The notes beneath the pieces are model-generated. The model did not search any database. It saw only the letters and a program-made list of their open reading frames with translations, and was not told the DNA's origin. A DNA stretch of 64,000 nt from a virus (Duplodnaviria > Heunggongvirae > Uroviricota > Caudoviricetes), in IMG/VR virus record IMGVR_UViG_2718217859_000011, positions 23,757-87,756 of that record. One strand, given 5' to 3'. The translations under genes and the position numbers were made by a program. Each line of letters starts with the position of its first letter. The first letter of the stretch is position 1. Shown here one piece after another: positions 27,478 to 48,960 of this stretch.

Positions 27478-27480
27478 TTA

Positions 27481-30229: not shown

Positions 30230-30777
30230 GCAACGGTAAACTGGATATTAAGATTGATTTAAGCGCGTATAACACCACGCTGGGGAAACTGATTCGTTCC
30301 GTGAAGGACCGGCGCGATCTGATGACGGCACTTGCGGGTTCCATGCTGGATGCGGTTGAGACTAACTTTGAACAACAGGGGCGCCCGAAATGGATGGGCT
30401 GGAGTCCGGCTTATGCGAAACGGCGCGGCCCCGGGCAAATCCTTCAGAAATCCGGGCGACTGGCTGCCAGTATCCGCTCTGCGGTTAACAATAACGAGGC
30501 CACGGTCGGGACAAACGTCCGTTATGCCCGTATCCACAACGAAGGCGGCGAAATCCGCCATCAGGCACGGACGCAGAACCTGTATTTTAAACAGTACAAA
30601 AACGGCAGCGTCAGCACCCGCTTTGTGAAAAAGCGCAACAGTAATTTTGTGCAGAGCGCAACGGTCGGAGCGTATACGGTCAACATGCCCGCGCGCCCCT
30701 TCCTTCAGCTTGTACAGGACGACATCGACGAGCTGGAGAACACCGCAAACCGCTATTTTGCGCGTGTGATTGACTGA
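30226..30777 (+). CDS. Virion morphogenesis protein (Mu G-like)
   Basis: 183 aa; ATGA overlap with F. Confidence 0.6.
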   Translation: MSNGKLDIKIDLSAYNTTLGKLIRSVKDRRDLMTALAGSMLDAVETNFEQQGRPKWMGWSPAYAKRRGPGQILQKSGRLAASIRSAVNNNEATVGTNVRYARIHNEGGEIRHQARTQNLYFKQYKNGSVSTRFVKKRNSNFVQSATVGAYTVNMPARPFLQLVQDDIDELENTANRYFARVID

Positions 30778-30932
30778 ATGACCACAAACGCGCTGTAATC
30801 GTCTGTGGCAACATAAACGCCTCACGGATGAGGCATTACAGCACCGCACCCCGTAAATGCTGTCAGAATCGTTTTTAAAAGGGTTTTAAAAACGGTTTTA
30901 TTTCCCCTTTTATCCTTTCGCGTTATGGCTGG

Positions 30933-32102
30933 GTGCTGAACACCCTCCACAGTACCCCGTGTTCCCCTTCCGTCATCATGCCGCGTATGAAACTGAACAT
31001 TGCGGCGTTAAGCCTCGAAATTACTAAAGCAACCCACAGCGAAATCCAGCTGTTTCCGGCGGGCGAGTTCAGCGCGGTGGATGGTCGCCCACATACCGAT
31101 GAAGTCGAAAGCGGTAAATGGGTGCTGACCGCTGAACTGGCCGCGCAGCTTGTCGCGCAGGTGGCCGCCCGTACCACGCCTTTTGTCATTGATTACGAAC
31201 ATCAGACGCTGCGCGCCGTAAACAACGGCAAGCCCGCCCCGGCGGCGGGCTGGTTCAGCCAGGTGGAATGGCGAGAAGGCGCGGGCCTGTATGCCACCGG
31301 TGTGGAGTGGACGGATAACGCGGTGGCCATGATTGCCGCCGGTGAGTACAAATTTATTTCCCCTGTTTTTGCCTACAACAAGCGCGGCGAAGTGCTGGAG
31401 CTGTTACATGCTGCGCTGACCAATACCCCGGCGCTCGACGGTATGGACGCGGTCATGCTGGCTGCGGCCAGCCGTCTGGCGAGTCTGTCAACTGAAACGG
31501 AGAACACAACGGTGGATGAAGAACTGTTAAACGACTTGCTGTCCAGTCTGCGCTGGATGCTTAACCTCCCGGTTACCTCAACGGCGGAAGATATCAAAAA
31601 CGAGCTGCAAAAGGTCGTTGACATGATTTCGAACGGTCAGGGAACGGCGGCGGCATCCGTCAGCCTGCTGGCCCTGCTGAATCAGAAAGACGAGCAAATC
31701 GCCAGCCTGTCAGCCAGTGCCTATGACCCGTCAAAACACATTTCCCTTGCGGCCTTTGAAGAACTTCAGGGGCGTTATGCCGCACTGGCGCAACAGTCCG
31801 GTGAGGCCGAAGCCGGGGCACTGATTCAGGCGGCGCTGTCTGACGGGCGACTGCTTCCGGCGCAGGAAGACTGGGCGAAAGATTACGCCAGCCGCGATAT
31901 CAACGGCTTTAAGTCCTGGCTGGATAACGCACCAAAACTTGTTGCACTCAGTCAGACCCAGACCGGCGGTAAACCACCCCAAACGCCGTCGCCTGCCCCG
32001 GCGCAGATTAAAACCGGTGATGACATCGATGTCGATATCGCCATTTGTTCAATGATGGGCGTTGATCCAGAGGATGTCGCCCGTTACGCAGGAGACAAGT
32101 AA
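30933..32102 (+). CDS. Head protease/scaffold (Mu I-like); N-terminus uncertain
   Basis: 389-aa frame starting at GTG 30933 (alternative ATG starts at 30978/30987); precedes the major head gene. Confidence 0.6.
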   Translation: MLNTLHSTPCSPSVIMPRMKLNIAALSLEITKATHSEIQLFPAGEFSAVDGRPHTDEVESGKWVLTAELAAQLVAQVAARTTPFVIDYEHQTLRAVNNGKPAPAAGWFSQVEWREGAGLYATGVEWTDNAVAMIAAGEYKFISPVFAYNKRGEVLELLHAALTNTPALDGMDAVMLAAASRLASLSTETENTTVDEELLNDLLSSLRWMLNLPVTSTAEDIKNELQKVVDMISNGQGTAAASVSLLALLNQKDEQIASLSASAYDPSKHISLAAFEELQGRYAALAQQSGEAEAGALIQAALSDGRLLPAQEDWAKDYASRDINGFKSWLDNAPKLVALSQTQTGGKPPQTPSPAPAQIKTGDDIDVDIAICSMMGVDPEDVARYAGDK

Positions 32103-32498
32103 ATGGATCGCAATACCCCCTATCGTGACGGCGAGCTGAACCCGGTGCCGGTTGCCGCTGCGACCGAAATTTTTGGCGGCCATATGGTGGCCGTTAACGC
32201 ATCCGGTTATGCCGTTCCGGCCAGTGCCACGGCCTCACAGATTACGCTGGGCGTGTCTGATGGCTGGGTGGATAACAGCACCGGCAGCGATGGCGACGCC
32301 ACCGTTCTGGTGCGTTGCGGCAAAGCCTTTCTGATGGCGAACAGCACCTCAGACCCGGTCACGCAATCGCAGGTCGGCAAGGTGTGCTACGTGGAAGACA
32401 GCGTGACCGTGGCAAAAACCGACAACAGCAGCGCCCGCCCTGTCGCCGGGAAAATAATCGGCATCGGTGACGATGGCGTCTGGGTTCATTTCAGTTAA
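32103..32498 (+). CDS. Hypothetical head-associated protein (131 aa)
   Basis: Directly between the protease/scaffold and major head genes. Confidence 0.4.
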   Translation: MDRNTPYRDGELNPVPVAAATEIFGGHMVAVNASGYAVPASATASQITLGVSDGWVDNSTGSDGDATVLVRCGKAFLMANSTSDPVTQSQVGKVCYVEDSVTVAKTDNSSARPVAGKIIGIGDDGVWVHFS

Positions 32499-32508
32499 GG
32501 AGCAAAAC

Positions 32509-33417
32509 GTGATAGTCAACGTTAAAAACGTCAAACAGATTTTTATCAATCTGAAGGCCACCTTCCAGAAAGCCTTCGACCAGTCACCAACTGACTGGCA
32601 GAAGGTGGCAATGGAAGTGCCATCAAACGGCAAGGAGAACGACTACAGCTGGTTAAGTCGTTTCCCGAAAATGCGCGAGTGGATTGGTGACAAGGTCGTT
32701 AAATCACTGGCGGCATTTAACTACACCATCCGTAACAAGGACTGGGAAGCCACGGTTGAAGTCGATCGTAACGACATCGAGGACGACCAGATTATGGGCT
32801 ATGCCCTTCAGGCGAAAGGGGCCGGACAGTCGGCGGCAGAGCTACCAGCAGATATTGTGGCGTCCCTTATCAGTAACGGTTTTACCAATCCCTGTTACGA
32901 CGGCCAGCCGTTCTTTGATACCGACCACCTGGTCGCCGGTAAATCGGTGTCCAACAAAGGCACCAAAAAACTCAAAGTTGGCTCGCTTGCCGAGGCGAAA
33001 GCCTCCTACGGTGCCGCCCGTACATCCATGCGCAGCCTGAAAGATGACGAAGGCGCATCCCTTAAAATTCGCCCGAATCTGCTGGTTGTGCCACCGGCGC
33101 TGGAAGATGACGCGAACTACCTGATGACCGCCGAGAAGTTCCCGGACGGTACGCCGAACCCGTACCGCAACACCGCCGACGTGCTGGTGATGCCGGAGCT
33201 GGCGTCGGATTCTGCATGGTTCCTGTTTGACACCACCAAACCGGTGAAACCGCTGATTTATCAGCTGCGTAAAAAGCCTGTTTTTGTGGAGCAGACGGAC
33301 TACAGCAGCGACAACGTGTTCGCGCGTAAGAAGTTCCTGTTTGGTGCCGAAGCGCGCTGTAACGGCGGTTACGGCTTCTGGCAGATGGCATTTGGTTCTG
33401 ATGGTACGACGGAGTAA
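32509..33417 (+). CDS. Major head subunit (Mu T/gp34-like)
   Basis: GTG start at 32509 with AAGGAG RBS at 32497-32502. Confidence 0.7.
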   Translation: MIVNVKNVKQIFINLKATFQKAFDQSPTDWQKVAMEVPSNGKENDYSWLSRFPKMREWIGDKVVKSLAAFNYTIRNKDWEATVEVDRNDIEDDQIMGYALQAKGAGQSAAELPADIVASLISNGFTNPCYDGQPFFDTDHLVAGKSVSNKGTKKLKVGSLAEAKASYGAARTSMRSLKDDEGASLKIRPNLLVVPPALEDDANYLMTAEKFPDGTPNPYRNTADVLVMPELASDSAWFLFDTTKPVKPLIYQLRKKPVFVEQTDYSSDNVFARKKFLFGAEARCNGGYGFWQMAFGSDGTTE

Positions 33418-33420
33418 TGC

Positions 33421-33762
33421 ATGGAAAAGGTGATTGAAATTACCGCCCGCCGTGAAGGTTTTCGCCGCTGCGGTGTGGCGCACAGTGCAACCACGAAGGC
33501 ATGGCCTGCGGATGCGTTCACCCCGGAACAGCTGGCGGTGCTGAAGGCTGACCCCATGCTGATTGTGGTGGAGCGCGATAAAGCGTCCGGCCAGAACGAC
33601 GCGCTCCGGGGTGATGAACTGGCCGCACAGCTTGATGCCGAGCGTCAGAAAGTCAGCGAACTGACGGCGCAACTGGAAGAAGAGCGCCAGAAAGTCAGTG
33701 AACTGACCGCACGGCTGAACGCCGCACAGAAAACACAAAAAGCGGACAAAAAGGAGAAGTAA
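33421..33762 (+). CDS. Hypothetical head-tail region protein with coiled coil (113 aa)
   Basis: Repeated ELTAQLEEERQKVSELTA segment. Confidence 0.4.
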   Translation: MEKVIEITARREGFRRCGVAHSATTKAWPADAFTPEQLAVLKADPMLIVVERDKASGQNDALRGDELAAQLDAERQKVSELTAQLEEERQKVSELTARLNAAQKTQKADKKEK

Positions 33763-33765
33763 CCC

Positions 33766-34197
33766 ATGTCTTACGCCACACCGGAACAGTTCATCAGGGC
33801 GTTCAGTGAACGCGAGGCACGCACACTGACGGATGAAGACATGACGGGATTCATCGACGAAGAAAAGCTGGCCTCCGCGCTTGCGCGTGCCAGTGCCCAG
33901 ATTGATGGCTATCTGGTGGGGCGTTACCGGACCCCGTGGCCTGACAGCCCGGGGATTCTGGTGGGTTACTGCTGCGATATCGCCCGTTATCACCTGGCGA
34001 CCGATTACCGTATCTGCTCAGAAGAAATTCAGATGCGCTACCGGGACGCCATCCGCTTTCTGGAGAAAGTCGCGGCAGGACAAATCAACCTCGGACGGGA
34101 TACGTCCGGCAGCGTGATCCAGTCATCGTCACAGGTGCGTATCCGCTCCGGCTCCCGTCAGTTCGGGCGTGAGTCCACGCGGGGAGGTGCATTCTGA
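33766..34197 (+). CDS. Head-tail joining protein (Mu gp36-like)
   Basis: 143 aa; position and size. Confidence 0.55.
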   Translation: MSYATPEQFIRAFSEREARTLTDEDMTGFIDEEKLASALARASAQIDGYLVGRYRTPWPDSPGILVGYCCDIARYHLATDYRICSEEIQMRYRDAIRFLEKVAAGQINLGRDTSGSVIQSSSQVRIRSGSRQFGRESTRGGAF

Positions 34198-34250
34198 TTA
34201 CTGAAATTGAACGGGCGCTGGTTGAGCGTCTGCGCTGTGGTCTGGGGCAT

Positions 34251-34847
34251 ATGGTGCAGGATGTCCGCACCTATGCCGGTGAACTGGATGAAGACCCGGG
34301 CCGGATTGTTCGCAGCCTTCCGGCAGCCTGGGTGACGTTCGGCGGCATCGTGAAAACCGAACGCTATTCCACGTCACGCCGGAAATACATTGCCACCGGA
34401 CGCTTTGTGGTTGTGGTGGGTGATTACAACACCCGCAGCGAACAGAGCGCCAGACAGGGAGGCACCGTCCGGGATGAAGTCGGGACAAACCTGCTGGTTG
34501 AATCCGTCCGCCGTCTGCTGACCGGTCAGGATTTGGGGCTGGAGATTGATTATTTCGAACCCGGGCGGGTCAGGACGCTGTTTAACACCGGCGTGGCAGA
34601 GCGGGCAATGTCCGTATTTGCCTGTGAGTTCGATACCCGCTGGGTGGAGCACGCGCTGGAGAACGGCAAATGGCCGGAGCGCGGCGCAGAAGCGGACCGC
34701 CTCTTCAACCGCTACCACGGCAGGCTGTCAGACCCTGACCCGGAACTGCTGAACCTTGGCATCCTGTACCAGATGCAGGACAGCGACGCTGAAATATCAG
34801 GGCTGACTGAATTAAGAGAGCAACAGCATGAACAAAATGAAGGTTAA
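34251..34847 (+). CDS. Mu gp37-like protein; start may lie upstream
   Basis: 198 aa from ATG 34251; frame open upstream to 34194. Confidence 0.5.
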   Translation: MVQDVRTYAGELDEDPGRIVRSLPAAWVTFGGIVKTERYSTSRRKYIATGRFVVVVGDYNTRSEQSARQGGTVRDEVGTNLLVESVRRLLTGQDLGLEIDYFEPGRVRTLFNTGVAERAMSVFACEFDTRWVEHALENGKWPERGAEADRLFNRYHGRLSDPDPELLNLGILYQMQDSDAEISGLTELREQQHEQNEG

Positions 34848-35070
34848 GGCGGCTCCCGGGATGAAGTTCCCGATGGAGGATAACGCCCGGAAATACATCA
34901 CCACGGAAGCAGTGACCGTTGAGAACACCGCTTATTACCGGCGCGCCGTTCAGGACGGTGACCTGATTCTGGTGAAGGATGAGCCTGAAACCACCGTGAC
35001 GGCTGAACAGGACGCCGTGCAGGTAAAAGCGAAGGCGAAGAGAGAGAAACAGGTGGATTCCGATGAGTGA
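34828..35070 (+). CDS. Hypothetical protein (80 aa) preceding the sheath gene
   Basis: Small ORF with conserved synteny position. Confidence 0.4.
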   Translation: MNKMKVKAAPGMKFPMEDNARKYITTEAVTVENTAYYRRAVQDGDLILVKDEPETTVTAEQDAVQVKAKAKREKQVDSDE

Positions 35071-36484
35071 AATTCAGTTTGACACCATTTCGGGCGGCAT
35101 CCGTAAGCCCGGTGTGCATTTTGAGTTCAATACCCGGCTGGCCGTTAACACGCTGCCGGGTAACGAACAGCGTGTTCTGGTGATTGGCCCGATGCTGTCA
35201 GGCGGCACCGCCACGCCCCTGAATGCGGTTTCCGTGTATTCCGAAGACGAAGCGGATTTGTATTTCGGGGCCGGTTCGCTGGCCGCTGCAATGGCGCGCG
35301 CGGCTATTAATGCCAACAGCTATCTGCAACTGGATGTTATCGGTATTGCAGACAGTGGCGCAGGAAAGGCAGCAACCGGCGCGGTTACCGTCAACGGTAC
35401 GGCAATCAGCAGCGGCACACTGTCGGTATGGGTTGCTGGTGAGCAGGTCACGGTGGATGTGGAAACCGGCGATGAACCGTCGAAAATCATTCCTGCACTG
35501 GTGGAGGCAATGACGCAGACGCCATCGCTTCTGGTCACGGGGGAATACAAATCAGAAGCCTCTCAGCTGACGGTGACCACCCGGACCAAAGGAGCCTGGG
35601 GGAATGACATTACCCTGTCAGCATCCACCACGGCAGGTGGTCTGACCGTGAGCGCCACGCCGATGGCGAACGGTGAAATGGACCCGGATATTCAGCCCGC
35701 ACTGGATGCGGTCTTTGCCGCCGGTCACAACATTCTGATTTGTCCGTTCAGTACCACGCCAGCCCTTGCCGCCCTGAAGCAGCATCTGGAGAAAACCGGG
35801 AACGCGATGGAACAGCGCGGCGCGATTGGCTGTGCGGGCTGGACGGGCAGTCTCGGAAACGGGATCACCCTGGCAGCCGGTGTGAACAGCGGGCGCGTGT
35901 CCGTCCCCTGGTATCGCGGCTCCGTGAAGCTGCCAGCGGTACTGGCTGCCATCTACGGCGCTGTGATGGCGGGCGAGGAAGACCCGGCGCGTCCGCTGAA
36001 CTCGCTGGCGCTGTCCGGGCTGGATGTGGTCGCCATGTCACAGCGTGAAAGCCGTAACGAGCAGGAAAACGCCCTGCATAACGGCCTGACGCCGGTTGAG
36101 GTTGGCCCGGGTAACACGGTGCAGATTGTGCGTGCGGTCAGTACGTACACGGTTAACGCACAGGGCGTGACTGACGTCTCGTTACTGGATATCACGTCCA
36201 TCAGAACGCTGGACTACACCCGCAAGGCGTGCCGCGAACGCATCAGCCTTCGCTTCCCGCGCGAAAAACTCAGCACCCGCACTATCGCAAAAGTGGAAAG
36301 CGAACTGTATGACGTGCTGATTAAGCTGGAGGAAGCGGAAATTCTGGAGAACGTGGAAGCGAACAAGGCAAAGCTGCGCGTTCAGCGAAACGGGAAAGAT
36401 GCAAACCGTCTCGACTGCGTGGTTCCGGCGGATGTGGTTAACGGCCTGCATGTGTTTGCCGGTCGCATCGACATGATTTTGTAA
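35063..36484 (+). CDS. Tail sheath protein (Mu L-like)
   Basis: 473 aa; followed by tube, chaperone and tape-measure genes. Confidence 0.8.
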   Translation: MSEIQFDTISGGIRKPGVHFEFNTRLAVNTLPGNEQRVLVIGPMLSGGTATPLNAVSVYSEDEADLYFGAGSLAAAMARAAINANSYLQLDVIGIADSGAGKAATGAVTVNGTAISSGTLSVWVAGEQVTVDVETGDEPSKIIPALVEAMTQTPSLLVTGEYKSEASQLTVTTRTKGAWGNDITLSASTTAGGLTVSATPMANGEMDPDIQPALDAVFAAGHNILICPFSTTPALAALKQHLEKTGNAMEQRGAIGCAGWTGSLGNGITLAAGVNSGRVSVPWYRGSVKLPAVLAAIYGAVMAGEEDPARPLNSLALSGLDVVAMSQRESRNEQENALHNGLTPVEVGPGNTVQIVRAVSTYTVNAQGVTDVSLLDITSIRTLDYTRKACRERISLRFPREKLSTRTIAKVESELYDVLIKLEEAEILENVEANKAKLRVQRNGKDANRLDCVVPADVVNGLHVFAGRIDMIL

Positions 36485-36496
36485 GGAGCGCGGTAA

Positions 36497-36871
36497 ATGT
36501 CCATTAAAGAATATGTCGGCTCGATTGTGCTGGAGGTGGACAGCCAGGAAATCGAGATCACCGACTTCGATGTTCAGATCAACACCGGGCGAAAGCTGGT
36601 CAAGACCATGAACAAAACTGGCAGGGCAAAAGGCTTTGCCCGTGGCATTGCCACTTACGATATTTCAGTTTCGGCGGTTATCCCTGATACCAACGAGCCG
36701 GACTGGGAAAATCTGGAAGGTGTGAAAATTTCAATTTATCCGCTCAGCAACAGCGGCAAGCGCACCTCCTATCTGGACTGCTTCACTGTTGAAGTGGGTG
36801 AGAAATACACCGTCGACAGTGAAGCGAAAATTGATATCAAAATGGCTGCACTCAGGAAGGTGACAGGATGA
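36497..36871 (+). CDS. Tail tube protein (Mu M-like)
   Basis: 124 aa directly after the sheath gene. Confidence 0.75.
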   Translation: MSIKEYVGSIVLEVDSQEIEITDFDVQINTGRKLVKTMNKTGRAKGFARGIATYDISVSAVIPDTNEPDWENLEGVKISIYPLSNSGKRTSYLDCFTVEVGEKYTVDSEAKIDIKMAALRKVTG

Positions 36872-37251
36872 CTTTGATTAATACACAGACCGGCGAACTG
36901 TCTGATGGCGTGGTATTTAACGGCACCGTTCATAAAAACTTTGAGCTGCGTCTGCCGGTCATGCGTGATAACGGGCAGGCACTGGAAGAAACCGAAGAAC
37001 GCTTTCAGACGGTGGACGGCTTCGCGGCAGATTATTACTACCGTTGCGCAGTGATGGCGGCAACGCTGGTCCGTCTTGGGGATATCCCGCAGGAAGAACT
37101 GACGGCGGATCTGTTGCACGACAACATGACGCCGGACGATTTTAATATTCTGCTGGCATCACGCAACGTCCTGAAGGTAAAGCGGAACGGCGGGAATCCC
37201 GGCTCGCCGGACTCCGGCTCGCAGTCCTTATCCTCGGGCGCTACGGAATAA
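36868..37251 (+). CDS. Tail assembly chaperone
   Basis: 127 aa between the tube and tape-measure genes. Confidence 0.55.
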   Translation: MTLINTQTGELSDGVVFNGTVHKNFELRLPVMRDNGQALEETEERFQTVDGFAADYYYRCAVMAATLVRLGDIPQEELTADLLHDNMTPDDFNILLASRNVLKVKRNGGNPGSPDSGSQSLSSGATE

Positions 37252-37428
37252 CCGAAGAGCAAATCATGACCATGAGCCGTCCCGAGCTGGACGGCTGGCT
37301 TGCCGCCGTTGACAGGCTGAACGGCGGCGGTTCAGGAAGAAAGGACACCTCACAGACCACCCGCCAGTCATTTAAATCCCTCAGAAAGAAACGCAGAAAA
37401 GGTAAGCAGAAAAATGGCCGGTAATTTC
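37146..37428 (+). other. -1 frame extension overlapping the chaperone 3' end (candidate programmed frameshift product)
   Basis: -1 frame open from 37146 to a stop at 37426-37428, bridging the chaperone stop and overlapping the tape-measure start. Confidence 0.3.
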
Positions 37429-39393
37429 AAAGTTGGCATGACCCTGACTGCGAAGGACGAAGCCTCGCAGGTTCTGGAAAAGGGACAAAAACAGGTTATC
37501 AAAGCCACCGAAGGTGTAACAAAGGCAACACGGAAGGCAGGCGCAGAGCAGAAGCGTACCGAGCAGGAAAGCATTAACAGCACGAAAAAGGCCGCAAAAG
37601 AGATACAGCGTGCCGCCCGTGCCCGGGAAACGCTCGGTATTCGTGCAGAACGTGAAATCCGGCGTGAAATTTATCAGACAGTTGCCAGCTATAACCGTCT
37701 GGCCCGCGCCGGTTTTGAATCTGCGCAGGAGCAGGAGCGCGCCATGCAGGCCGCCCGGGAAAAAGCCCGGGCACTCAAGCGTGAACTGGATGGCGTCACT
37801 CAGGCTCAGATGAAGATGGCGAAAACACCTGTTATCCCGGAGCCGGGGCGTTTTGCACGTGCGGCAGCATTTGGCGGGAATGCCGTGACAATAGGTGGTG
37901 GTATCGCGGCAGGTGCTGCCATTATGGCGCAGCCGGTCAAAAAGCAGATGAGCTACGAACGCCAGCTGGCAATGATGGCCAATACCGCCTTCAGTGATGG
38001 CGGACTGGAGGGGCGCAAAGCCGGTCTTGAGCAGATGAAAAGCAGCATCCGTAACGCGGTGACCTATGGTGGCGGCACAAAAGAGGATGCAGCCGAAACA
38101 CTGGATGCCCTGCTGAAAGATGGCGGTATTTCATTTGACACAGCCAGCAAGTGGCTGCCTGAACTGATGAAATACGCCACGGCTTCCGGTGCATCAGCGA
38201 CAGACCTGGCTAATGTGATGCTTAAGGGCAAAAAGACTTTTGGATTCAGGGATGAAGATATTTCCACCGTTCTGAATATGGCAATTGCAGCGGGCAAAGA
38301 AGGCAGCTTTGAACTGAGCGACATGGCCCGATGGTTATCTTCGCAACTGGGGTCAGCGTCAGCTGCGGGGATGAAAGGCAAAGATGATTTCGTCAAGATT
38401 CTGGCACTGAATGAAGCTGCTGCCATCACGGCGGGAAGCAGTGATGAGGCCGGAAATAACGTGTTTAACCTGCTGGCTAAACTGACCAGCCACGATATTG
38501 AAACAGCGGCAAAGAGCATTGATTACAACGGTAAAGGAATTGATTTTTCCGGTACGCTGGTTCAGGCGCGCGAGCATGGGCTTGATCCGATAGATGCGCT
38601 GTCCAGCCTGATAGACAAAATCGTTGCCAGCGATAAACGCTTTCAGGAGTTGCAAAAGAAACTGGCCTCCGCCCGGGATAAAGGTGAGCAGACGGCTGTT
38701 TACGATTCGATGGCAAAACTCCTTGAAGGCTTTGGTGTCGGGAAACTGGTTGCAGACCAACAGGCGTTAAAAGCGTTGCTGGCTTACCGTAACAACCCTG
38801 AATACCGCAAGAAGGTTGAAGATGCGGTTAATCAGCAGCGCACCCTGCCGGAAGGTCAGCGCGCGGGTGATGTGGATTTTAACTTCATATCCGGCCTCAA
38901 TGACTTTAAAACCGAACAGGCTAAAAACACGCTTGAATTTTCACAAATGGATGGTGTGAAAAAACTGGCTGATGCATCCGGGACTGTGGCCGATGCCATA
39001 AGCTGGGCGGGTGAAAAATTTCCGGGGCTGACCACAGCAGTGGTGACAGCTACCACAGCCATTAAAGCGATGACAGCAGCGGCCGTCACGTTTGCGGGGC
39101 TGAAACTTATTACCGGTAATCCAGTGTCCGGAGGAGCAGATAAGCCCGATGATACTGGGGATACTGCATCCAAAGTTAAAGATATCAGTGAAGTCGCTTC
39201 CGGCAATCAGGGACGTCTGGGAAAAATAATGGGCGCTGCCGGAAAAATTGCAACCATTTACGCAGGCTATGAGGCCGCAGAAGAACTTTATGGGGCTGTT
39301 GTTGGCGATACCATCAAGAACTTTACAGATAATCATGGTTTGTTTTTTGCAGACGATGGCTCCTTGTTCTTTACCCGTGAAGGAATGCTTAAA
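37414..39393 (+). pseudogene. Tail tape measure gene, 5' part (interrupted by IS66-family insertion)
   Basis: Frame continues in phase at 42093-42361 after removal of the IS and one TSD copy; last 8 codons before the stop at 39418-39420 are IS-encoded. Confidence 0.75.
39386..39393. repeat. Target-site duplication TGCTTAAA (left copy) of the IS66-family element
   Basis: Identical 8 bp at 42093-42100. Confidence 0.7.
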
Positions 39394-39423
39394 GTAAGCG
39401 ACTCGTCAGAACCGTATTGATAT

Positions 39424-40995
39424 TTACTGAGAGCTCAGATCAACTTTCCAGGGCAACAGATCGCGTACCCGGTTTGCCGGCCAGTCCTGGATATGTTCAA
39501 TGACGTAACGCAGCCACTTTTCTGGCTCCACATTGTTCAGACGGCATGTGCCGATCAGCGAGTACAACACCGCCGCATGTTCACCACCGCTGTCGGAACC
39601 CGCGAACATCCAGTTTTTCCGGCCTACGGCCACTCCCCGTAAGGCGTTCTCTGCGATGTTGTTGTCGATTTCCACCCAGCCATTACTGCAGTACACGTTC
39701 AGTGCATCCCACTGTTTCAGCAGGTATGCGAACGCTTTTGCCGTATCTGAGTGACGCGACAGTGTTTTCATCTGTTGCTGTATCCAGTCATACAGTGACT
39801 GCATCAGTGGCGCGGCTCTGGCTTTTCTTGCCGCCAGACGCTGTTCTGCTGAACAGCCCCGGACCTCTGCCTCGATGGCATACAGTTCACCGATACGCTG
39901 CAGGGCTTCCGTGGTGATGTAGGTGGGCGCTCTTGCATGCACATCGTGGATTTTTCTCCGGGCATGAGCCATACACGCGGCTTCCGTTATTCTGCCGGAT
40001 TCGTATAACGCCCGGTAACCACCGTAAGCATCGGCCTGAAGCACACCGCTGTAACCGGCCAGGTGATTTTGTGGATGGATACCTTTCCGGTCCGGACTGT
40101 ACGCGAACCAGACCGCCGGGGGCATCTGTGAACCGGCGTTACGGTCATCACGGACGTAGACCCACAGCCGGGCTGTCCGGGTTTTACCGCTGCCCGGCTC
40201 CTGGACCGGGACGGGGATATCATCAGCATGGACTTTACCGGGCATCAGCACATACTGGCGCAGGACGTCATACAGCGGCTCCAGCAGTTCAGCAACAGCA
40301 CCTGTCCAGCGCCCCAGTGTGGCACGGCTCAGCTCCACTCCCTGACGACGGTATATTTCTGACTGGCGGTATAACGGCAGATGGTCTGCATATTTCCCGG
40401 TGACAACATGGGCCAGAAGCCCCGCTCCGGCATAACTGCGTGCAATGGGTTTTGAAGGTACTGGTGCCTGCACGATATGGTCGCACCGGCAACAGGCCTG
40501 TTTCGGACGTTGTGTTTCGATAACCTTAAAGGCGCTGCTGATAAGCTCCAGTTGCTCTGACACATCACATCCCAGAGAACTGAGTTCACCACCACAGGCA
40601 GGACAGCATTCCTCTTCCGGCCGGATAACCCGGGTTTCACGGGGAAGTGAGGCCGGTAACGGTTTACGGGCTGAAGACTGGCGCAGGGCGGATGGCAGTA
40701 CCGGGTCATATTGCTCACCCAGCGTTTCCGCCATTTCTTCCTGAAGTGCGCTGATTCGCTCCTGTGCTTCCTGTATCTGCCGTTCGGTTTTTGCACGAAG
40801 TTTTTCTGAGCTTTTACCGAACTGCATACGTTGCAGTTTCGCAACCAGCGCCTTCAGCCGGTTGATTTCGGAAGCATAAGCCGCCACCCGCTGTGAGAGC
40901 AGGCGGTTGTATTCAGCCATCTGGCGGATGGTGTCCTGTTGCGTCTGCAACAGTGCCCGCAGGCGGGCGTTCTCATGAGCAAGTGAGGTGTCCAT
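39424..40995 (-). CDS. IS66-family transposase TnpC
   Basis: 523 aa; N-terminal leucine zipper, Cys-rich zinc-finger region (CPACGG...CRCDH) and DDE core. Confidence 0.85.
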
Positions 40996-41014
40996 ATCCT
41001 CACTTTACAACGGG

Positions 41015-41362
41015 TTATATGCGGATTCCAGCGCGTTCCGTTCGTTTCGGGTGCTTCCAGTTGATACCTTCAAGAAGCATGGATAACTGAGCCGGAGTAA
41101 GGTGCACCTTGCCGTCACGGGTGACTGGCCAGACGAAGCGGCCCCGCTCCAGGCGTTTGGTGAAGAGGCACAGTCCGTCACTGTCAGCCCACAACACTTT
41201 TATCTGGTCACCCCGGCGTCCGCGGAAGATGAACAGGTGTCCGGAGAACGGGTCATCCTTCAGGACGTTCTGAACTTTTGATGCCAGGCCGTTAAAGCCA
41301 TTTCGCATATCGGTGATACCTGCAACCAGCCAGATACGCGAACCTGCAGGGAGAGATATCAT
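41015..41362 (-). CDS. IS66-family TnpB (Orf2)
   Basis: 115 aa; typical size and sequence of IS66 Orf2. Confidence 0.8.
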   Translation of the reverse strand: MISLPAGSRIWLVAGITDMRNGFNGLASKVQNVLKDDPFSGHLFIFRGRRGDQIKVLWADSDGLCLFTKRLERGRFVWPVTRDGKVHLTPAQLSMLLEGINWKHPKRTERAGIRI

Positions 41363-42039
41363 CAGTGGCTGCTCCCTTTTATTTCGCGGATAAGTGTCTG
41401 TAATAACGCCGGCGTCAGTTTACCTTTAAGCCTGAGAGTTCCGGCCGGCAGAACCAGCTCACAACACAGACTGTCGGACGGTGTATTTATCTGCTCTGGT
41501 TCCTGTGCGGGGGCCGGGATTTTATTATCCGGCTCCGGCGTTAACGTCACGGGAAGCAGTGCCGGCATATTTTTTCCGGAAGGCAGCAGGCCACCTTTCC
41601 GGTATTGATGGCGCCAGTTGAAGAGCAGGTTATCGTTGATTCCGTTTTCCCGGGCGATCTGCGCCACACAGGCTCCGGGCTGCAGTGACTGCTCCACTAA
41701 GGCGATTTTAAACTCATAAGGGAAGTTGGGCCGCCGGGGACGTTTTTTTACCACGGGGGCTTCGGATATAACGGTGCTTTCAGGACGTACGACTGGTACC
41801 GTGGAAAATTGTCCGTAAAGGCAGGCATCAAGTTCCTGCTCCGACATGCCTGCGGGCAAAGGCCACGAAAGGCCAGCTCTCCGAAAGCGCACGAACATAC
41901 TACAAACTGTTGATTTTGGTACACCCAGGCGACGCCCGGCCACAACCCGGGGTAAATGTTCTTCAAAGTGAAGACGTAAAGCTTCAGTGATCCAGGTCCG
42001 GTGTTTCATACGATAGTGTCCATTAAAAATGATGGACAT
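41362..42039 (-). CDS. IS66-family accessory protein TnpA (Orf1)
   Basis: 225-aa ORF with ATGA overlap to tnpB; HTH-like N-terminal region. Confidence 0.55.
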   Translation of the reverse strand: MSIIFNGHYRMKHRTWITEALRLHFEEHLPRVVAGRRLGVPKSTVCSMFVRFRRAGLSWPLPAGMSEQELDACLYGQFSTVPVVRPESTVISEAPVVKKRPRRPNFPYEFKIALVEQSLQPGACVAQIARENGINDNLLFNWRHQYRKGGLLPSGKNMPALLPVTLTPEPDNKIPAPAQEPEQINTPSDSLCCELVLPAGTLRLKGKLTPALLQTLIREIKGSSH

Positions 42040-42092
42040 TATTTTTGTAGAGCCGGAGGAAACAGACCAGACGGTTTAAATGAGCCGGTTAC

Positions 42093-42100
42093 TGCTTAAA
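42093..42100. repeat. Target-site duplication TGCTTAAA (right copy) of the IS66-family element
   Basis: Matches 39386-39393. Confidence 0.7.
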
Positions 42101-42361
42101 CGGGATAATGAGCTGAAAGCCGCAGCTGATGCTCTGCCATCACCGGAGCAGGTGAACAAAGCCGCCGGAAACACAACGCCTGAATCAGCATCAAAGCAAC
42201 CCGGACGCATCACCCAGCCGGAATACCTCACGCACTGGGGACCACCTGCCAGCCCCATTAATTTCACCACACAACTGGTGCTCGATGGTCAGGTCGTGGC
42301 GGAGGCAGTGAACAAATACAACCTTCAGGACGGCAACAGAGGCACGGGAGGAACTTACTGA
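42093..42361 (+). pseudogene. Tail tape measure gene, 3' part
   Basis: In phase with 37414-39393 across the duplicated 8 bp; ends by overlapping the next gene. Confidence 0.7.
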
Positions 42362-43710
42362 TGGGCTGGGCTGAAAACCTGCAAAACGCCTCCTTTCGTG
42401 GCGTGCAGTTTGATGTACTGAACACGGATGAACAAATCAGCCGCGACCATGCGGTCTATGAATACCCGTTTGTTGACGGGGCGGATTTGCACGACCTCGG
42501 ACGCAAGGCGCGACCGTTCCGCATGACGGCGTTCCTGTGGGGGGAGTATTACGAATATAAACTTGAAAAGCTGATCGCCGCCCTGGATAAAGGCGGTGAT
42601 GGTGAGCTGATTCACCCGGTTTACGGCTCCGTACCGTCGGTGATTGTGACCGGCTACAGCATCCGCCATGACGCAGAAAGCCCGGACAGCTGCACCATCG
42701 ACATGAGTTTTCTGGAGAACCGCACCGGCAGCGCGTTGTTCAGCACCCCGTTACCGGAGCTGTTTGCACAGAAGTTATTTGAAGAACTGGATAAGTTACT
42801 GGCACAGTTAAGCGAATTATTTGACGCTGTTACGGCCCCTTTAAAGACCATTAACAGCGTGATTAAAAAAATCCAGACGGTGCGTGCCACGCTGGTGAAT
42901 ACCCTGCTGACATTCAAAAGCGATTTTCTCTCATCCATCGACAATATGATGTCACTGGCCAGCGAACCCGGAAAGTTCATCGGCGGGCTGGCAGAGGTGC
43001 TGGAAATCCACACGTCAGATGTCGGGCACGCGGTGCCGGTGCTGGAGCGTACTGATTCCGCCACCACGACCGGACTGACCGGGGAAGACAGCGTCGCCAG
43101 TTCTGCGACAGTGATGACCTGCTGGAATGAGGTGATGGCAGATATGGATGAGCTGGTCGCACTGCCGGTCGCACTGGTCAGCGGTGATAAAACGCCGTCT
43201 GTGGCACTTCCGCCGGATGCGTCCGTGGAAGACGTGCAGGACGTGAAAGCGGCATATGCGGTTCTGGCAGCCTCAGAGCTGGCCAGCGTGGCGACGGCGA
43301 TACTGTCAGATGAGGCCCAGTCAGAGCAGCTTATACCGGCGGATATCGGGCGACTGGTCGGGGATGTGCGCACCCGCTTACAGGCAGCCATCACGCTGTT
43401 CCGTGAACGCTATGAAGGCGAACGCGAACGGATAACCGAAACCGCATCACCGCTGGGGCTGATGTACCCGGAAATCATTCAGAGCATGAAGAACGTGGCG
43501 GCATCCGTGCAGGATGTCGGCCTGCTGGTTCTGTCTCGCCGCCCACCGCTGACGCAGAAACAGGTGCAGGCGGACAGCTGTCTGCTGTTGCTGGCGTGGC
43601 AGTGGTACGGCGATTACAGCCGTGCGGCAGAGCTGCAACGTCTGAACCCGCAGCTGCGTGACCCGAACAACATAACCGCCGGGATGGTGATTAATGCCTA
43701 TGCAAAATAA
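42361..43710 (+). CDS. DNA circularisation protein (Mu N/gp43-like)
   Basis: 449 aa immediately after the tape measure. Confidence 0.7.
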   Translation: MGWAENLQNASFRGVQFDVLNTDEQISRDHAVYEYPFVDGADLHDLGRKARPFRMTAFLWGEYYEYKLEKLIAALDKGGDGELIHPVYGSVPSVIVTGYSIRHDAESPDSCTIDMSFLENRTGSALFSTPLPELFAQKLFEELDKLLAQLSELFDAVTAPLKTINSVIKKIQTVRATLVNTLLTFKSDFLSSIDNMMSLASEPGKFIGGLAEVLEIHTSDVGHAVPVLERTDSATTTGLTGEDSVASSATVMTCWNEVMADMDELVALPVALVSGDKTPSVALPPDASVEDVQDVKAAYAVLAASELASVATAILSDEAQSEQLIPADIGRLVGDVRTRLQAAITLFRERYEGERERITETASPLGLMYPEIIQSMKNVAASVQDVGLLVLSRRPPLTQKQVQADSCLLLLAWQWYGDYSRAAELQRLNPQLRDPNNITAGMVINAYAK

Positions 43711-44905
43711 CGACGACAAAATCAGCCTGGTCATTGCCGGAAGGTCGCATTCTGACTGGAGCAGTTATCGTATTGACAGCGATTTCCTGAAAGCCGCCGA
43801 CGGCTGGCAGCTTCAGCTGGGACTGCCTGAAAAGGTGTTCCCGGCGGATATCGTCCGGGGTGCGCCGGTCCGTTTGCAGGTGGGAGACGAGACGGTCCTC
43901 AGTGGTCGCGTGGACAGCGTGCGCCGCAGTGTATCCCGTCAGAGCTGCACGCTGACCCTGTCCGGGCGTGATGATGCCGCCATCCTGGTGGACTGTGCCG
44001 CACCGGTGTTCAGCGCCAACCAGCTGACACTGGACGAGGTCATCGACAGGATAGTCAGACCGCTGGGGATACAGCGCATCCGTATTCAGGCGTCCGGTGT
44101 GTCACGTAATGACAAGGTCGTTATAGAGCCGGGGATGCGTGCGTGGGATGCACTGGCTAAAGCTGCCGCCGGTCGCGGCTTATGGCCGTGGTTTGAGCCT
44201 GACGGGACGCTGGTTGTGGGTGGCCCTGACTACACCACCACGCCGGTGGACACGCTGATTATGAAGCTGGACGGCACCGGGAACAACGTGATGGAGCTGG
44301 ACGATACCCGGTCCATTAACGGCTGTTTCTCCGAGCTGACGGTGCTGGCCCAGAGCCACGCCCGCCGCGCAGACAGCAAGAAACAACTGGCCGTGGTGCC
44401 GCTGGATATCTGGAACGAGGACGGCAGCGTGCGCACATTGTCCGGGCAGGACAGCGGTAATACGGACAGTGGCCAGACGGGCATTCATAACATGAAAGCC
44501 GTGGCCACCGACCCCACCGTGGATTATTACCGCCCGCAGATAATCACCCAGGGCGACACCAGTAACATGGAGCAGGTGAACTGGCGCGCCAAAAAAATGA
44601 TGAGTGATGCCCGTCTGTCGGGGCTGGATATCGTCGCACTGGTTGCAGGTCATCGCACGGCGGACGGTGTCCTGTGGCAGCCCGGCCAGCGTGTGCGGAT
44701 TGTCAGCGAACCCCACGGCATCGACGCCATCTTTTTCCTGATGGGGCGTGAGTTCAGCGGAGGCCGGAGCGGGCAGACAACCCGGCTCCGCTTTAAGGAG
44801 GATGGCGTGTGGATACCTGATGCCTTCCCGCGCGAGACGAAACGCCATCACCGCAGGGGCAAAAAGAAAAAAGAGGTCGCCATTGTTAAGGTCTGGGAGA
44901 AATGA
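43694..44905 (+). CDS. Baseplate hub protein (Mu P/gp44-like)
   Basis: 403 aa; synteny. Confidence 0.7.
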   Translation: MPMQNNDDKISLVIAGRSHSDWSSYRIDSDFLKAADGWQLQLGLPEKVFPADIVRGAPVRLQVGDETVLSGRVDSVRRSVSRQSCTLTLSGRDDAAILVDCAAPVFSANQLTLDEVIDRIVRPLGIQRIRIQASGVSRNDKVVIEPGMRAWDALAKAAAGRGLWPWFEPDGTLVVGGPDYTTTPVDTLIMKLDGTGNNVMELDDTRSINGCFSELTVLAQSHARRADSKKQLAVVPLDIWNEDGSVRTLSGQDSGNTDSGQTGIHNMKAVATDPTVDYYRPQIITQGDTSNMEQVNWRAKKMMSDARLSGLDIVALVAGHRTADGVLWQPGQRVRIVSEPHGIDAIFFLMGREFSGGRSGQTTRLRFKEDGVWIPDAFPRETKRHHRRGKKKKEVAIVKVWEK

Positions 44906-45558
44906 TGTGGGACAAGGTTAATCAGCGCATACAGCAGGCACTGGCCGCCGTTCGCCAGGCATTCAGGGTGGTGACCGGTACGGTGGACAGTTCGACCAAA
45001 GTACAGTTGCTTCAGCTGAACGGGCTGGCAGGCGAACAGCTGGACGGTGCGGAGTATTTTCAACATTACGGCCTCACCACATCCCCGCCGCCCGGCTCGA
45101 TGGGTATTGCCGTTCCGCTGAATGGTAATACCTCCCATACCGTCGTCGTGGCCACAGAGCACGGCGCATATCGCCTGACGGAATTGAAACCCGGGGAAGT
45201 GGCCCTGTATACCGACGAAGGCGCGAAAATTGTGCTGAAGCGCGGACGTGTGATTGAAACGGAGTGTGATATTTACCGGGTGAAATGTAATTCGTTTGAA
45301 GTTGAAGCAAAGGACAGCGCTGGTTTTATTACTCCCCAACTTACCGCAAGTGAGCAATTAATTGCTGAAGGGAAAATATCCGGTAATGGGGGTATGGCCA
45401 TTAAAGGCGGCAAAGGAAAATATACTGCCACCTTTGAAGGCAATATCAACCACACAAGCGGTGTGATTACCTCCGTTGACGTCACCATTAATGGCGTTAA
45501 AATCGGAACGCACAAACACCCGACCCCACACGGCATGTCTGACACGCCGGTTAATTAA
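44902..45558 (+). CDS. Baseplate assembly protein (Mu Q/gp45-like)
   Basis: 218 aa; synteny. Confidence 0.6.
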   Translation: MMWDKVNQRIQQALAAVRQAFRVVTGTVDSSTKVQLLQLNGLAGEQLDGAEYFQHYGLTTSPPPGSMGIAVPLNGNTSHTVVVATEHGAYRLTELKPGEVALYTDEGAKIVLKRGRVIETECDIYRVKCNSFEVEAKDSAGFITPQLTASEQLIAEGKISGNGGMAIKGGKGKYTATFEGNINHTSGVITSVDVTINGVKIGTHKHPTPHGMSDTPVN

Positions 45559-45611
45559 GTGCTGAACACCCTCACCTGATTCTGACCTGTCCATGCTGCC
45601 AGACTGGCGGC

Positions 45612-45962
45612 ATGGACCAGACGATTTCACCTGCAACCGGCGACTACGAACGCCGCCGGATTTATACACTCCATAACGCGGTTTATCTGCGACTGGCGAC
45701 ACCGCTTGGCAGTTACTGGGCGGATGCGTCGCTGGGGTCACGCCTGCACGAACTGAAGCGGGAAAAAGACGTTTCCCGTGTTCACAGGCTGGCGGCGCAG
45801 TATGCCAGCCAGGCACTTCAGCCCCTGCTTGATGACGGGCGGGCAAAATCCATTACCGTTGACACGAAAGCGGGCCAGCGAGGCTGGCTGTTGCTGTTAA
45901 TCACCGTCACGGATAACGCGGGCACACCGCAGACGTTTGAACACCCTGTGAGGATTATGTAA
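45612..45962 (+). CDS. Baseplate protein (Mu gp46-like)
   Basis: 116 aa; synteny. Confidence 0.5.
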   Translation: MDQTISPATGDYERRRIYTLHNAVYLRLATPLGSYWADASLGSRLHELKREKDVSRVHRLAAQYASQALQPLLDDGRAKSITVDTKAGQRGWLLLLITVTDNAGTPQTFEHPVRIM

Positions 45963-47041
45963 TGCCGTTTCCTGTTCCGGGCGTTGCTGAAAACACAGAA
46001 CGCCAGCTACGTGATATCGCTAACGCCCTGCCGGGAGAAACCATCGACACCGGCGCTGACAGCGATTACCGCATTCGTGCAAATGCCGTATCCGGCGTGG
46101 CGGACGGACTTTATATGCATCAGGGATGGATCCTCCGTCAGGTGTTTCCTGACACGGCAGACCCTGAATATCTGGAGCTGCACTGCCGTACGCGCAATGT
46201 TTTTCGTAAAAAAGCAACGGCCTCATCCGGTCCGGTAGTGATTACCGGCACACCCGGTAAGACGCTGCCAGCCGGTGCGGAAATTCGTGGTGAAGGTGTC
46301 AGCGTGGCCACCACAGCAGACTGCACCATCGGTGATGAAGGCAGCGCAGAGGTGACGGTAAAAAGCACCGCCACGGGTGTACAGACGAACGCATCCGCAA
46401 CGCAGACGGCAACGCTGGTCAGCCCGCCGGAAGGCATCAACAGCACGGTGACGATTAAATCCCTGACCGGTGGAACGGACAGGGAAAGTGACACCGACCT
46501 GCTGGCGCGTTATCTGGATATCCTGCGCAGGCCGCCCGCTGGCGGTAACAAATATGATTACAAACGCTGGGCGCTGGAAGTGGATGGCGTTACCTCAGCA
46601 TATGTGGAGCCGTTACGTCGTGGGTTGGGGACGGTTGATGTGGCCATTACGTCAGCCAATGACCTCCCTTCGCAGGAACTGATTAATGCCGTGCTGGCAC
46701 ATATTGAGGAAGTCCGCCCGGTCACAGCGAAGGACACAATGGTACTGGCCCCGACGAAAAAAGCCGTTGATTTCGTTGTTCGGGTAAAAACCAGCGGCCT
46801 GACCGTTGAGCAGATAAAACCGCAGATAACTGACGTTATCACGGATTTTATGAACCGGCTGGAGCCGGGGCAGGAATTAATAATTTCACAACTGGAAACC
46901 CAGATTTCATTAATTTCCGGTGTCAGTGACCGGCGAATCATTACGCCAGCAGACAACGTAAAAGCCATTATTAACGCGTCAACGTGGGAATGGCTGCGCC
47001 CGGGAAATATTGATATTCAGTCTTTTCCACGTGAGGGGTGA
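45962..47041 (+). CDS. Baseplate J-like protein (Mu gp47-like)
   Basis: 359 aa; synteny. Confidence 0.65.
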   Translation: MPFPVPGVAENTERQLRDIANALPGETIDTGADSDYRIRANAVSGVADGLYMHQGWILRQVFPDTADPEYLELHCRTRNVFRKKATASSGPVVITGTPGKTLPAGAEIRGEGVSVATTADCTIGDEGSAEVTVKSTATGVQTNASATQTATLVSPPEGINSTVTIKSLTGGTDRESDTDLLARYLDILRRPPAGGNKYDYKRWALEVDGVTSAYVEPLRRGLGTVDVAITSANDLPSQELINAVLAHIEEVRPVTAKDTMVLAPTKKAVDFVVRVKTSGLTVEQIKPQITDVITDFMNRLEPGQELIISQLETQISLISGVSDRRIITPADNVKAIINASTWEWLRPGNIDIQSFPREG

Positions 47042-47045
47042 TTTT

Positions 47046-47618
47046 ATGAATATGGTCGATTTATTTCGCGCCATGCTGCCACCTGTCAGTTATGACCTGA
47101 ACGGGAAATATATTTCCGCAGAACTGACAGCCGAGGCTGACGTCATGGAGGCCGTGAAGGCCTCAGCGGCGCGCGTTCTGGCACAAATCACCCCGTTGCA
47201 GGCATCGATGACGCTGTCCGACTGGGAGCGCGTGTACAGTGTTGTCCCCCGTGAAGAGGCAACACAACAGGAGCGGCGGCAGAACATTCTGGTAAAAATG
47301 GCAGCCACTGGCGGACTGTCAATCCCTTACTTTAAGAGCCTTGCCGCCAGTCTGGGCTATACCATCACCATTACGGAGCCGCGACCGTTCCGGGTGGGGA
47401 TAAACCGCTGCGGCGACCGTCTGCTGATACCGGAAATCCGCTGGGCGTGGCAGGTCAACGTTATCGGGACAAAAACACCGGTCTACCGGTTCAGAACGGG
47501 CGCATCGGCAACCGGCGAACCTCTGACGGCCTTTGGTGAATCCATTTTAGAAAACACGTTTAAAGACCTTAAACCGGCTTTTACAGACTGTTATTTTACG
47601 TATGAGGTGGAGGAATAA
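47046..47618 (+). CDS. Tail protein (Mu gp48-like)
   Basis: 190 aa; ATG at 47046. Confidence 0.55.
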   Translation: MNMVDLFRAMLPPVSYDLNGKYISAELTAEADVMEAVKASAARVLAQITPLQASMTLSDWERVYSVVPREEATQQERRQNILVKMAATGGLSIPYFKSLAASLGYTITITEPRPFRVGINRCGDRLLIPEIRWAWQVNVIGTKTPVYRFRTGASATGEPLTAFGESILENTFKDLKPAFTDCYFTYEVEE

Positions 47619-48421
47619 TGCAGAATTTAATGCCCCCGGTGAATACGCCGGATAAGTTATTTCATGATGGTGACCCGACTCAGGGAATTGAGGGAACCAT
47701 CGTTACTGCTGAATTTATGAATAATCATCAGGCAGCAACGCGTGATTTGCAGCAGGAGGTGATTAACGTCCTTAAAGAGGCTGGCGTCACCCCTGACCCG
47801 GAAAAACAAAACCAGCTGGTTGAGGCGCTGACCTCGTTTATTGGTCAGAAAGTCCCGGATGCATCGCTGACGCAAAAAGGCGTGGTGCAGCTTAACAGTG
47901 CTGTTAATAGTGAATCAGAAACAGAAGCTGCCACACCAAAAGCGGTCAAAATTGCGATAGATAACGCAAACGCCAGACTGGCAAAAGACCGTAACGGCGC
48001 AGACATCCCGAATAAACAGTTGTTTCTGGATAACATCAGCGGTGTGCCAAAAGCACGCAAGGTCAACGGTATGGCCCTGACTTCGGATATCACCATCAGC
48101 AGCATCAGCGGCAACGCCGGAACAGCAACCCGCCTTCAGAACGCCCGCAGAATCAACAATGTGCTGTTTGATGGCTCCAGCGATATCACAATCACCAGTA
48201 CCGATTCTGGTGCTGTGCGTAATTTCCAGTATACCAACGAGGTGTTTCATAATCCCGGCGGTGCTGAAATTACATGGACATTCCGGGCACCTTCCGGCTG
48301 TCAGTTGTCAGGCATTTATGTCCAGGAAACGGGAGATAATACAGCAGACAATATCGGTGGTGTGTATTACAAATCCGCGCAGATTTATATCAATGGCTCA
48401 TGGCGCACCGTATCCGGTTAA
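47618..48421 (+). CDS. Tail fibre protein (set 1)
   Basis: 267 aa; shares an ATPKAVK motif with the second fibre. Confidence 0.6.
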   Translation: MQNLMPPVNTPDKLFHDGDPTQGIEGTIVTAEFMNNHQAATRDLQQEVINVLKEAGVTPDPEKQNQLVEALTSFIGQKVPDASLTQKGVVQLNSAVNSESETEAATPKAVKIAIDNANARLAKDRNGADIPNKQLFLDNISGVPKARKVNGMALTSDITISSISGNAGTATRLQNARRINNVLFDGSSDITITSTDSGAVRNFQYTNEVFHNPGGAEITWTFRAPSGCQLSGIYVQETGDNTADNIGGVYYKSAQIYINGSWRTVSG

Positions 48422-48435
48422 TTAAGGAGAAAATA

Positions 48436-48960
48436 ATGGAACTCAGAAACGTCACGCGTTATTACCCGGAAGAAATGCCTTATGGTGAAAACATTCAGTA
48501 TTTCCGCAGTGAAGACGGACAGGATTTTTATGAATCACTGGATAAATTCACGAAGAAATACAAATTGTGTATTCACCCTGAAACCGGCGTGATTTATTCG
48601 ATGGCGGAAGACGTGTCCCGTCTTTATCCGGCTGGTTTCACTATTGTGGAAGTGGACGAACTGCCGGAGGGTTTTGGCATTGAAGCCTGCTGGTATTACC
48701 GGGATGGCGAAGTGCTGCCGGTTCCGGTTGATTATTCGCAACTGGCAGAAAAGCAACGCCAGCGTCTTCTGGCTGAAGCCAGGGACATCACCTCCGACTG
48801 GAAAACCGAGCTGGGACTGGGCACCATCAGCGACGATGACAAAGCCCGTCTTACGCAGTGGATGGCATATATCAAAGCGGTGAAGGCGCTGGATTTAAGC
48901 CTGGTCAGTGATAAATCTTCCTTTGATTTAATTCAGTGGCCGGAAAAACCTGACGTGTAA
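48436..48960 (+). CDS. Tail fibre assembly chaperone (set 1)
   Basis: 174 aa directly downstream of fibre 1. Confidence 0.65.
   Translation: MELRNVTRYYPEEMPYGENIQYFRSEDGQDFYESLDKFTKKYKLCIHPETGVIYSMAEDVSRLYPAGFTIVEVDELPEGFGIEACWYYRDGEVLPVPVDYSQLAEKQRQRLLAEARDITSDWKTELGLGTISDDDKARLTQWMAYIKAVKALDLSLVSDKSSFDLIQWPEKPDV

Follow-up and report, generated by a model that had tools for sequence, protein, structure and literature searches.

The sequence considered here, referred to below as the window, is the whole of a 64,000-nucleotide stretch of viral DNA (Caudoviricetes; IMG/VR record IMGVR_UViG_2718217859_000011, positions 23,757 to 87,756), and our subject is an insertion sequence (IS) of the IS66 family, ISCro1, that interrupts the tape-measure gene of a Mu-like transposable prophage. 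The Mu-like prophage itself splits a replication gene of a lambdoid prophage, and the window contains three nested layers of mobile DNA (Table 1).

Table 1. Features of the three nested elements and of the interrupted genes, in window coordinates (aa, amino acids)
Feature	Position	Strand	Support or remark
Lambdoid replication gene, 3' part (helix-turn-helix and iteron-bearing)	12368..12951	(-)	
Mu-like transposable prophage hosting the IS	12952..51963	(+)	Ends TGTGGGG...GTTACA; flanked by CTTG at 12948-12951 and 51964-51967
Tape-measure gene, 5' part, codons 1-660	37414..39393	(+)	PF10145; PHROG 794; alignment to intact homologue
Left copy of target-site duplication	39386..39393		TGCTTAAA
ISCro1 (IS66 family), 2699 bp	39394..42092	(-), opposite to phage late genes	100% identity over 1-2699 to E. 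coli copies
Terminal inverted repeat, tnpC end	39394..39415		GTAAGCGACTCGTCAGAACCGT; same ends in five other copies
IS-derived read-through, 8 foreign codons (VSDSSEPY) and stop	39394..39420	(+)	Terminates the 668-aa truncated tape measure
tnpC, DDE transposase, 523 aa	39424..40995	(-)	PF03050, E=2.5e-103; NF033517
tnpB, accessory gene, 115 aa	41015..41362	(-)	PF05717 and NF033819 (IS66_TnpB), above cut-off
tnpA, accessory gene, 225 aa	41362..42039	(-)	NF038385 (IS66_access_TnpA), 296 bits; cut-off 150
Terminal inverted repeat, tnpA end	42071..42092		Reverse complement of GTAACCGGCTCATTTAAACCGT
Right copy of target-site duplication	42093..42100		TGCTTAAA
Tape-measure gene, 3' part, codons 661-746 and stop, detached	42101..42361	(+)	PHROG 794
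gp43-like gene, DNA circularization protein N (tube initiator) homologue	42361..43710	(+)	PF07157; PHROG 184
Lambdoid replication gene, 5' part	51968..52202	(-)	

ISCro1 and the tape-measure gene

The element carries the three genes typical of its family, and its TnpC contains, besides the catalytic domain DDE_Tnp_IS66, the Pfam modules zf-IS66, LZ_Tnp_IS66 and IS66_C, scoring 478 bits against the NCBIfam model transpos_IS66 (cut-off 180). The TGA stop of tnpA overlaps the ATG of tnpB (TGATG), and a spacer of 19 nt, containing GAGGA, separates tnpB from tnpC. Members of the IS66 family have imperfect terminal inverted repeats of about 20-30 bp, starting with GTAAGCG or GTAA in the ISfinder descriptions; the termini of the window copy, GTAAGCGACTCGTCAGAACCGT and GTAACCGGCTCATTTAAACCGT, start with GTAAGCG and GTAACCG and, aligned by hand, match at 16 of 22 positions, too imperfectly for the automatic repeat finder, which did not report them. 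The original prediction, made from the letters and reading frames of the window, had described a 2699-bp element of the IS66 family with the order tnpA-tnpB-tnpC and imperfect inverted repeats, and every part of that description stood: the catalytic domain of TnpC, the coupled tnpA and tnpB upstream of it, the terminal repeats and the 8-bp duplication were all found, the protein set scored above curated cut-offs and copies labelled ISCro1 proved identical.

Such copies are numerous. ISCro1, first named in Citrobacter rodentium ICC168 and widespread in E. coli, was matched in 3,017 of the 5,426 complete E. coli genomes that we searched, and 1,791 matching records carry a copy at 99% identity or higher. 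Many copies, labelled by NCBI as "IS66-like element ISCro1 family", span positions 1-2699 exactly at 100% identity, and many genomes hold several, in up to 34 places per genome. All five full-length copies that we inspected have identical ends, and four of them are flanked by perfect 8-bp duplications of their own (TATTCGCG, TATTGATG, ATGCATTT and TCCGTTGA). The fifth, labelled 'ISCro1 family' by PGAP (WP_000381395.1), shows 0 mismatches to the window IS when compared base for base, has no duplication and adjoins an IS1 remnant; we took it for a rearranged copy and do not count it against the boundaries of the element. In sequence, nothing separates the window element from what NCBI annotates as ISCro1.

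The gene on either side of the IS is recognizable as a tape-measure gene. As it stands, the upstream open reading frame (ORF; 37414-39420, 668 aa) matches the Pfam family PhageMin_Tail with 72 bits (cut-off 33) and covers positions 2-610 of the 763 in PHROG 794, "tail length tape measure protein" (E=3.7e-213). Downstream, an ORF of 93 aa (42080-42361), whose in-frame ATG at 42080 is provided by the IS end, covers positions 680-751 of PHROG 794 (E=4e-9), colinear with the 5' fragment. The neighbours, assigned to PHROG 508 (chaperone) and PHROG 184 (hub), place the gene between the tail chaperone and the tube-initiator and hub genes. When the two parts are joined without the IS and one copy of the duplication, the resulting 2241 nt form 746 codons with a terminal stop only, and the frame resumes in phase, as had been claimed. 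The alignment to an intact homologue proposed beforehand as a check gave 711 of 746 residues identical (95%), end to end, against the 745-aa tape measure WP_042970742.1 of a related prophage in E. coli OkiPb01701, and it continues across the insertion point (...FFTREGMLK/RDNELK..., the stroke marking the site). No intact homologue was found that naturally ends at position 39393, or codon 660.

The 8-bp repeat TGCTTAAA that the original prediction had reported on both sides of the element was found at exactly those positions. The motif itself is not rare, with 4 copies in the window against 2.4 expected by shuffling, and the evidence lies in its position: two copies directly abut both ends of the IS, which for fixed positions has a chance of 4^-8, about 1.5e-5. 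The same 8 bp emerge from comparison with an unoccupied site. In blastn, window positions 25827-39393 correspond to positions 6932-20495 of the OkiPb01701 prophage segment and window positions 42093-51967 to its positions 20488-30362; 8 bp, exactly the duplication, are common to both matches. The comparison with genomes lacking the IS, also proposed in advance, revealed uninterrupted sequence across the site in 21 complete E. coli genomes. These observations are best explained by transposition of a copy of ISCro1 into codons 658-660 of the tape-measure gene, its 8-bp target TGCTTAAA being duplicated. The event appears to be recent, because the copy is identical to the widespread form, the duplication is perfect and no other lesion is visible among the late, lysis and structural genes.

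Probable consequences for the tail and alternative readings

The product now encoded consists of 660 native residues followed by the eight contributed by the IS; the last 86 residues are gone, their codons stranded 2.7 kb downstream. As the gene is laid out in the window, no full-length tape measure can be made. What this would mean for the virion is suggested by two better-studied phages. In Mu, only residues 674-690 of the 690 in the tape measure gp42 are ordered, at the centre of the baseplate, where they contact the hub gp44 and the spike gp45, and the authors of that work concluded that tape measure and stable baseplate assembly are inseparable (PMC11915804). In TP901-1, a tape measure that lacks its C-terminal 30 aa yields heads only (PMC5099701). 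By analogy, the truncated protein, without its C-terminal end, would not find its docking place in the hub and spike of the baseplate, and tails would then fail to assemble properly; no infectious particles would be produced, while the transposition and lysis genes look intact. We hold the whole of this explanation, from the jump of ISCro1 into the tape-measure gene through truncation and defective tails to the loss of infectious particles, with high confidence. The original prediction had called the prophage probably tail-defective: its premise, that a full-length tape measure is out of reach, stood, and the tail deficiency itself can soundly be expected from what happens in other phages.

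An additional effect on the neighbouring gene is conceivable. The start of the gp43-like gene overlaps the stop of the tape measure at position 42361, and through polarity the expression of this translationally coupled gene may suffer from the 2.7 kb of untranslated antisense IS sequence ahead of it.

Several observations weigh against parts of this interpretation. The role of the C-terminus is transferred from Mu on the strength of gene position and neighbours and not of homology between the two tape measures: BLASTP detects no pairwise similarity of the window protein to Mu gp42 (best E=0.28), and no PDB sequence matches it at E<=1. The lost C-terminal piece might in principle be provided by the 93-aa ORF, whose ATG lies in the IS end. 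As for polarity, consensus scans of 39200-42500 were uninformative, with terminator-like sites no commoner than expected by chance and not one promoter-like site. The annotation of Mu places inside gene N a late promoter from which transcription restarts ahead of gene P; should the promoters be arranged in that way here, polarity may leave the distal baseplate genes untouched. A mapping of the resolved C-terminus of Mu gp42 onto the window protein was dropped for the same want of significant similarity and of a PDB match. Among cultured phages, tblastn found only partial, distant relatives of the tape measure, the best, in a Klebsiella phage, having 46% identity over residues 4-539.

The reading that gains most from these points accepts the insertion and supposes that the tails still function, with the truncated protein sufficing, the 93-aa fragment complementing it or the tape measure of another prophage acting in trans. 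The 93-aa ORF does span the lost C-terminus, all other tail genes are intact and some internal deletions near the C-terminus of the TP901-1 tape measure leave limited infectivity (PMC5099701). Terminal deletions, however, abolish tail assembly in that phage (PMC5099701), and in Mu the C-terminus of the tape measure is an integral part of the plug formed with hub and spike (PMC11915804); furthermore, the scan offers the fragment no promoter-like site, and tape measures are normally phage-specific. We regard functional tails as unlikely. A bolder version, in which the 668-aa and 93-aa pieces assemble into a two-piece tape measure, or in which rare precise excision of ISCro1 through the 8-bp repeats makes the insertion a reversible on/off switch of particle production, strikes us as decidedly improbable.

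Another possibility is that the junctions are an artefact, a repeat-induced misjoin having placed an IS copy in the prophage. An element present in up to dozens of places per genome is a classic source of misassembly, and neither the 5,426 complete E. coli genomes nor the GTDB species representatives contain the exact junction of tape measure and IS. A misjoin, however, would not yield a perfect 8-bp duplication together with in-phase resumption of the gene, and both junctions are present in independent SRA assemblies. The exact 668-aa product with its eight IS-encoded residues was found on 5 Logan contigs from 10 samples and the exact 93-aa product on 8 Logan contigs (16+6 samples), the runs concerned including SRR26621184, SRR24895026 and SRR16203540. 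The left-junction contig that we inspected is identical to window positions 33414-39423 and ends 30 bp inside the IS; the right-junction contigs start 30 bp inside its other end. Short-read assemblers would be expected to break contigs at a repeat in just this way. Since both junctions recur in independent assemblies, the insertion, with the duplication that resequencing could have failed to reproduce, exists in a lineage that has been sequenced, where it marks one particular clone, and did not arise from misassembly of the window; the probability that we leave to a misjoin is minimal. The suggestion that the gene is naturally short or split here and that the IS sits in an intergenic gap, disrupting nothing, draws on the length of the upstream ORF and its continued match to tape-measure families, and is refuted by the intact homologue aligning straight across the site, the uninterrupted genomes and the 8-bp overlap of the blastn matches, as well as by the C-terminal fragment matching the last part of the same profile and by the IS origin of the last 8 residues of the 668-aa ORF; we give it practically no credence.

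The Mu-like prophage and its lambdoid host

The interrupted gene belongs to a prophage that is otherwise well preserved. We translated the 54 annotated coding sequences of the OkiPb01701 prophage, 43 of them late, lysis or structural and 11 from the early region, and compared them with the window by tblastn. With the exception of the tape measure, all 43 genes of the first group are full length, at 95-100% identity; they include Mor, the holins, endolysin, terminase, portal, head genes, sheath, tube and chaperone, the gp43-, gp44- and gp45-like genes, the wedge proteins and the fibres. The tape measure alone being split, the ISCro1 insertion is the sole visible lesion among them. In the early region, the MuA- and MuB-like genes are full length, and two small genes of the OkiPb01701 prophage have no counterpart in the window. 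The gp43-like gene has 34% identity to the N-terminus of Mu gp43 (E=1e-11).

Two further differences from the closest relative were seen. The immunity and early region is mosaic (window 13264-14316 and 17507-18914), with only partial alignments for a repressor at 42% and a Ner-like protein at 49% identity to the closest relative and with some early genes missing or replaced, against 98-100% identity in the late region. In that late region, the IS apart, a single indel distinguishes the window from the closest intact prophage: 743 bp (25084-25826), inserted between a DUF1804 gene and terL, encode (ORF 25095-25835, +) a 246-aa N6/N4 DNA methyltransferase (PF01555, PHROG 67), which looks like a cargo, or 'moron', gene in the late operon.

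The label 'Mu-like', used in the original prediction, is apt for genome organisation and does not extend to close kinship. At the left end lie a MuA-type DDE transposase (PHROG 310, E=1.9e-196) and a MuB-type AAA+ target activator (PHROG 296, E=3.5e-104). The transposase, however, has only 21% identity to MuA (E=3e-7), and in the tape measure, as noted above, no pairwise similarity to gp42 could be detected; the prophage is a distant relative of Mu.

Its boundaries could be established from four independent insertions at unrelated sites that share the TG...CA-type ends. Besides the one in the lambdoid replication gene of the window (duplication CTTG), these lie in fliH of OkiPb01701 (ATTG), between agaF and agaE in STEC316 (CCCT) and between yigF and rarD in Z1323CEC0011 (AATC). 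Immediately beyond TGTGGGG and GTTACA the bases differ from one insertion to the next, which fixes the ends of the prophage, and two of the four insertions, checked against empty sites, agreed with them at 100% identity. A recent survey gives the recognised scars of such phages as 5 bp (Mu) and 6 bp (B3) (PMC8705779); neither length was found in any of the four insertions, all of which have duplications of 4 bp. A 5-bp duplication with the phage ending in ...TTAC was considered and rejected: it would force a mismatch on two of the four insertions, and at the base concerned the empty fliH site has G, not A. A full-text literature search found no report of 4-bp duplications in Mu-like phages.

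The nesting that had been proposed, of IS within Mu-like within lambdoid prophage, was borne out at its outer level as well. Joined together, window positions 12351-12951 and 51968-52567 match uninterrupted lambdoid prophages (RM9088 and others) at 100% identity over 1201 bp, and the two parts of the replication gene rejoin to a helix-turn-helix ORF of 272 aa, split after about codon 79, with iteron-like repeats at about 12800-12940. Because the Mu-like prophage splits this gene, the outer prophage is probably replication-defective. Its lambdoid character follows from a lambda-like gene order, established from Pfam matches and from the annotation of the uninterrupted RM9088 relative; the content comprises a cI-like S24 repressor, cII-like and Rha regulators, a Q antiterminator, RusA, a lysis cassette and an integrase.

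Two features of the lambdoid prophage are recorded here for their own sake. A 505-aa protein with a cytidine/dCMP deaminase domain (61092-62609, +) adjoins the integrase (62762-64000, -); its counterpart in RM9088 is annotated 'anti-phage dCTP deaminase', and at its integrase end the prophage would then carry a defence gene. Two tRNA genes on the minus strand (4623-4699 and 4801-4876), one Arg-TCT and the other with a CAT anticodon (Met according to ARAGORN), lie in the late-regulatory region, downstream of the Q antiterminator; their equivalents in RM9088 are tRNA-Arg and tRNA-Ile, with a 'tRNA-OTHER' in between.

Significance and comparison with known systems

The practical consequence of our analyses is that both tape-measure fragments should be treated in annotation as parts of a single pseudogene, which ISCro1 interrupts, and that the Mu-like prophage is probably unable to form infectious particles, though a tool judging by gene content would call it intact or complete. 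Beyond annotation, the insertion has little significance in itself: the landing of an IS in a morphogenesis gene of a prophage is an ordinary and already known route of prophage decay. It does illustrate cleanly, in a case that can be dated, how that decay begins and, with its three nested layers, how insertion sequences accumulate on other mobile elements. For the biology of transposition, the 4-bp target duplications of this Mu-like lineage are of more interest than the IS.

Compared with ISCro1 elsewhere, the window IS has the same 2699-bp sequence, tnpA-tnpB-tnpC layout, ends and 8-bp duplications, and the insertion site alone is new. ISCro1 is reported to be the most expanded IS in Citrobacter rodentium, mostly on other mobile elements (PMC3072379), and has been reported in the afa/dr regulatory region of E. 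coli ST131 (PMC8764528); the latter report gives its size as 2,824 bp, against 2,699 bp in every full-length copy here. With Mu, the prophage shares the order of sheath, tube, chaperone, tape measure, gp43-like and gp44-like genes, including a true homologue of gp43 downstream of the tape measure, whereas the two differ in their tape measures, their weakly similar transposases and the length of their target duplications, 5 bp in Mu against 4 bp here. The 'grounded', decaying prophages described earlier offer a close parallel, with an IS in an essential morphogenesis gene and insertion sequences concentrated on other mobile elements (PMC3072379); relative to other decaying prophages, the decay in the window looks very early, a single visible lesion in an otherwise complete prophage.

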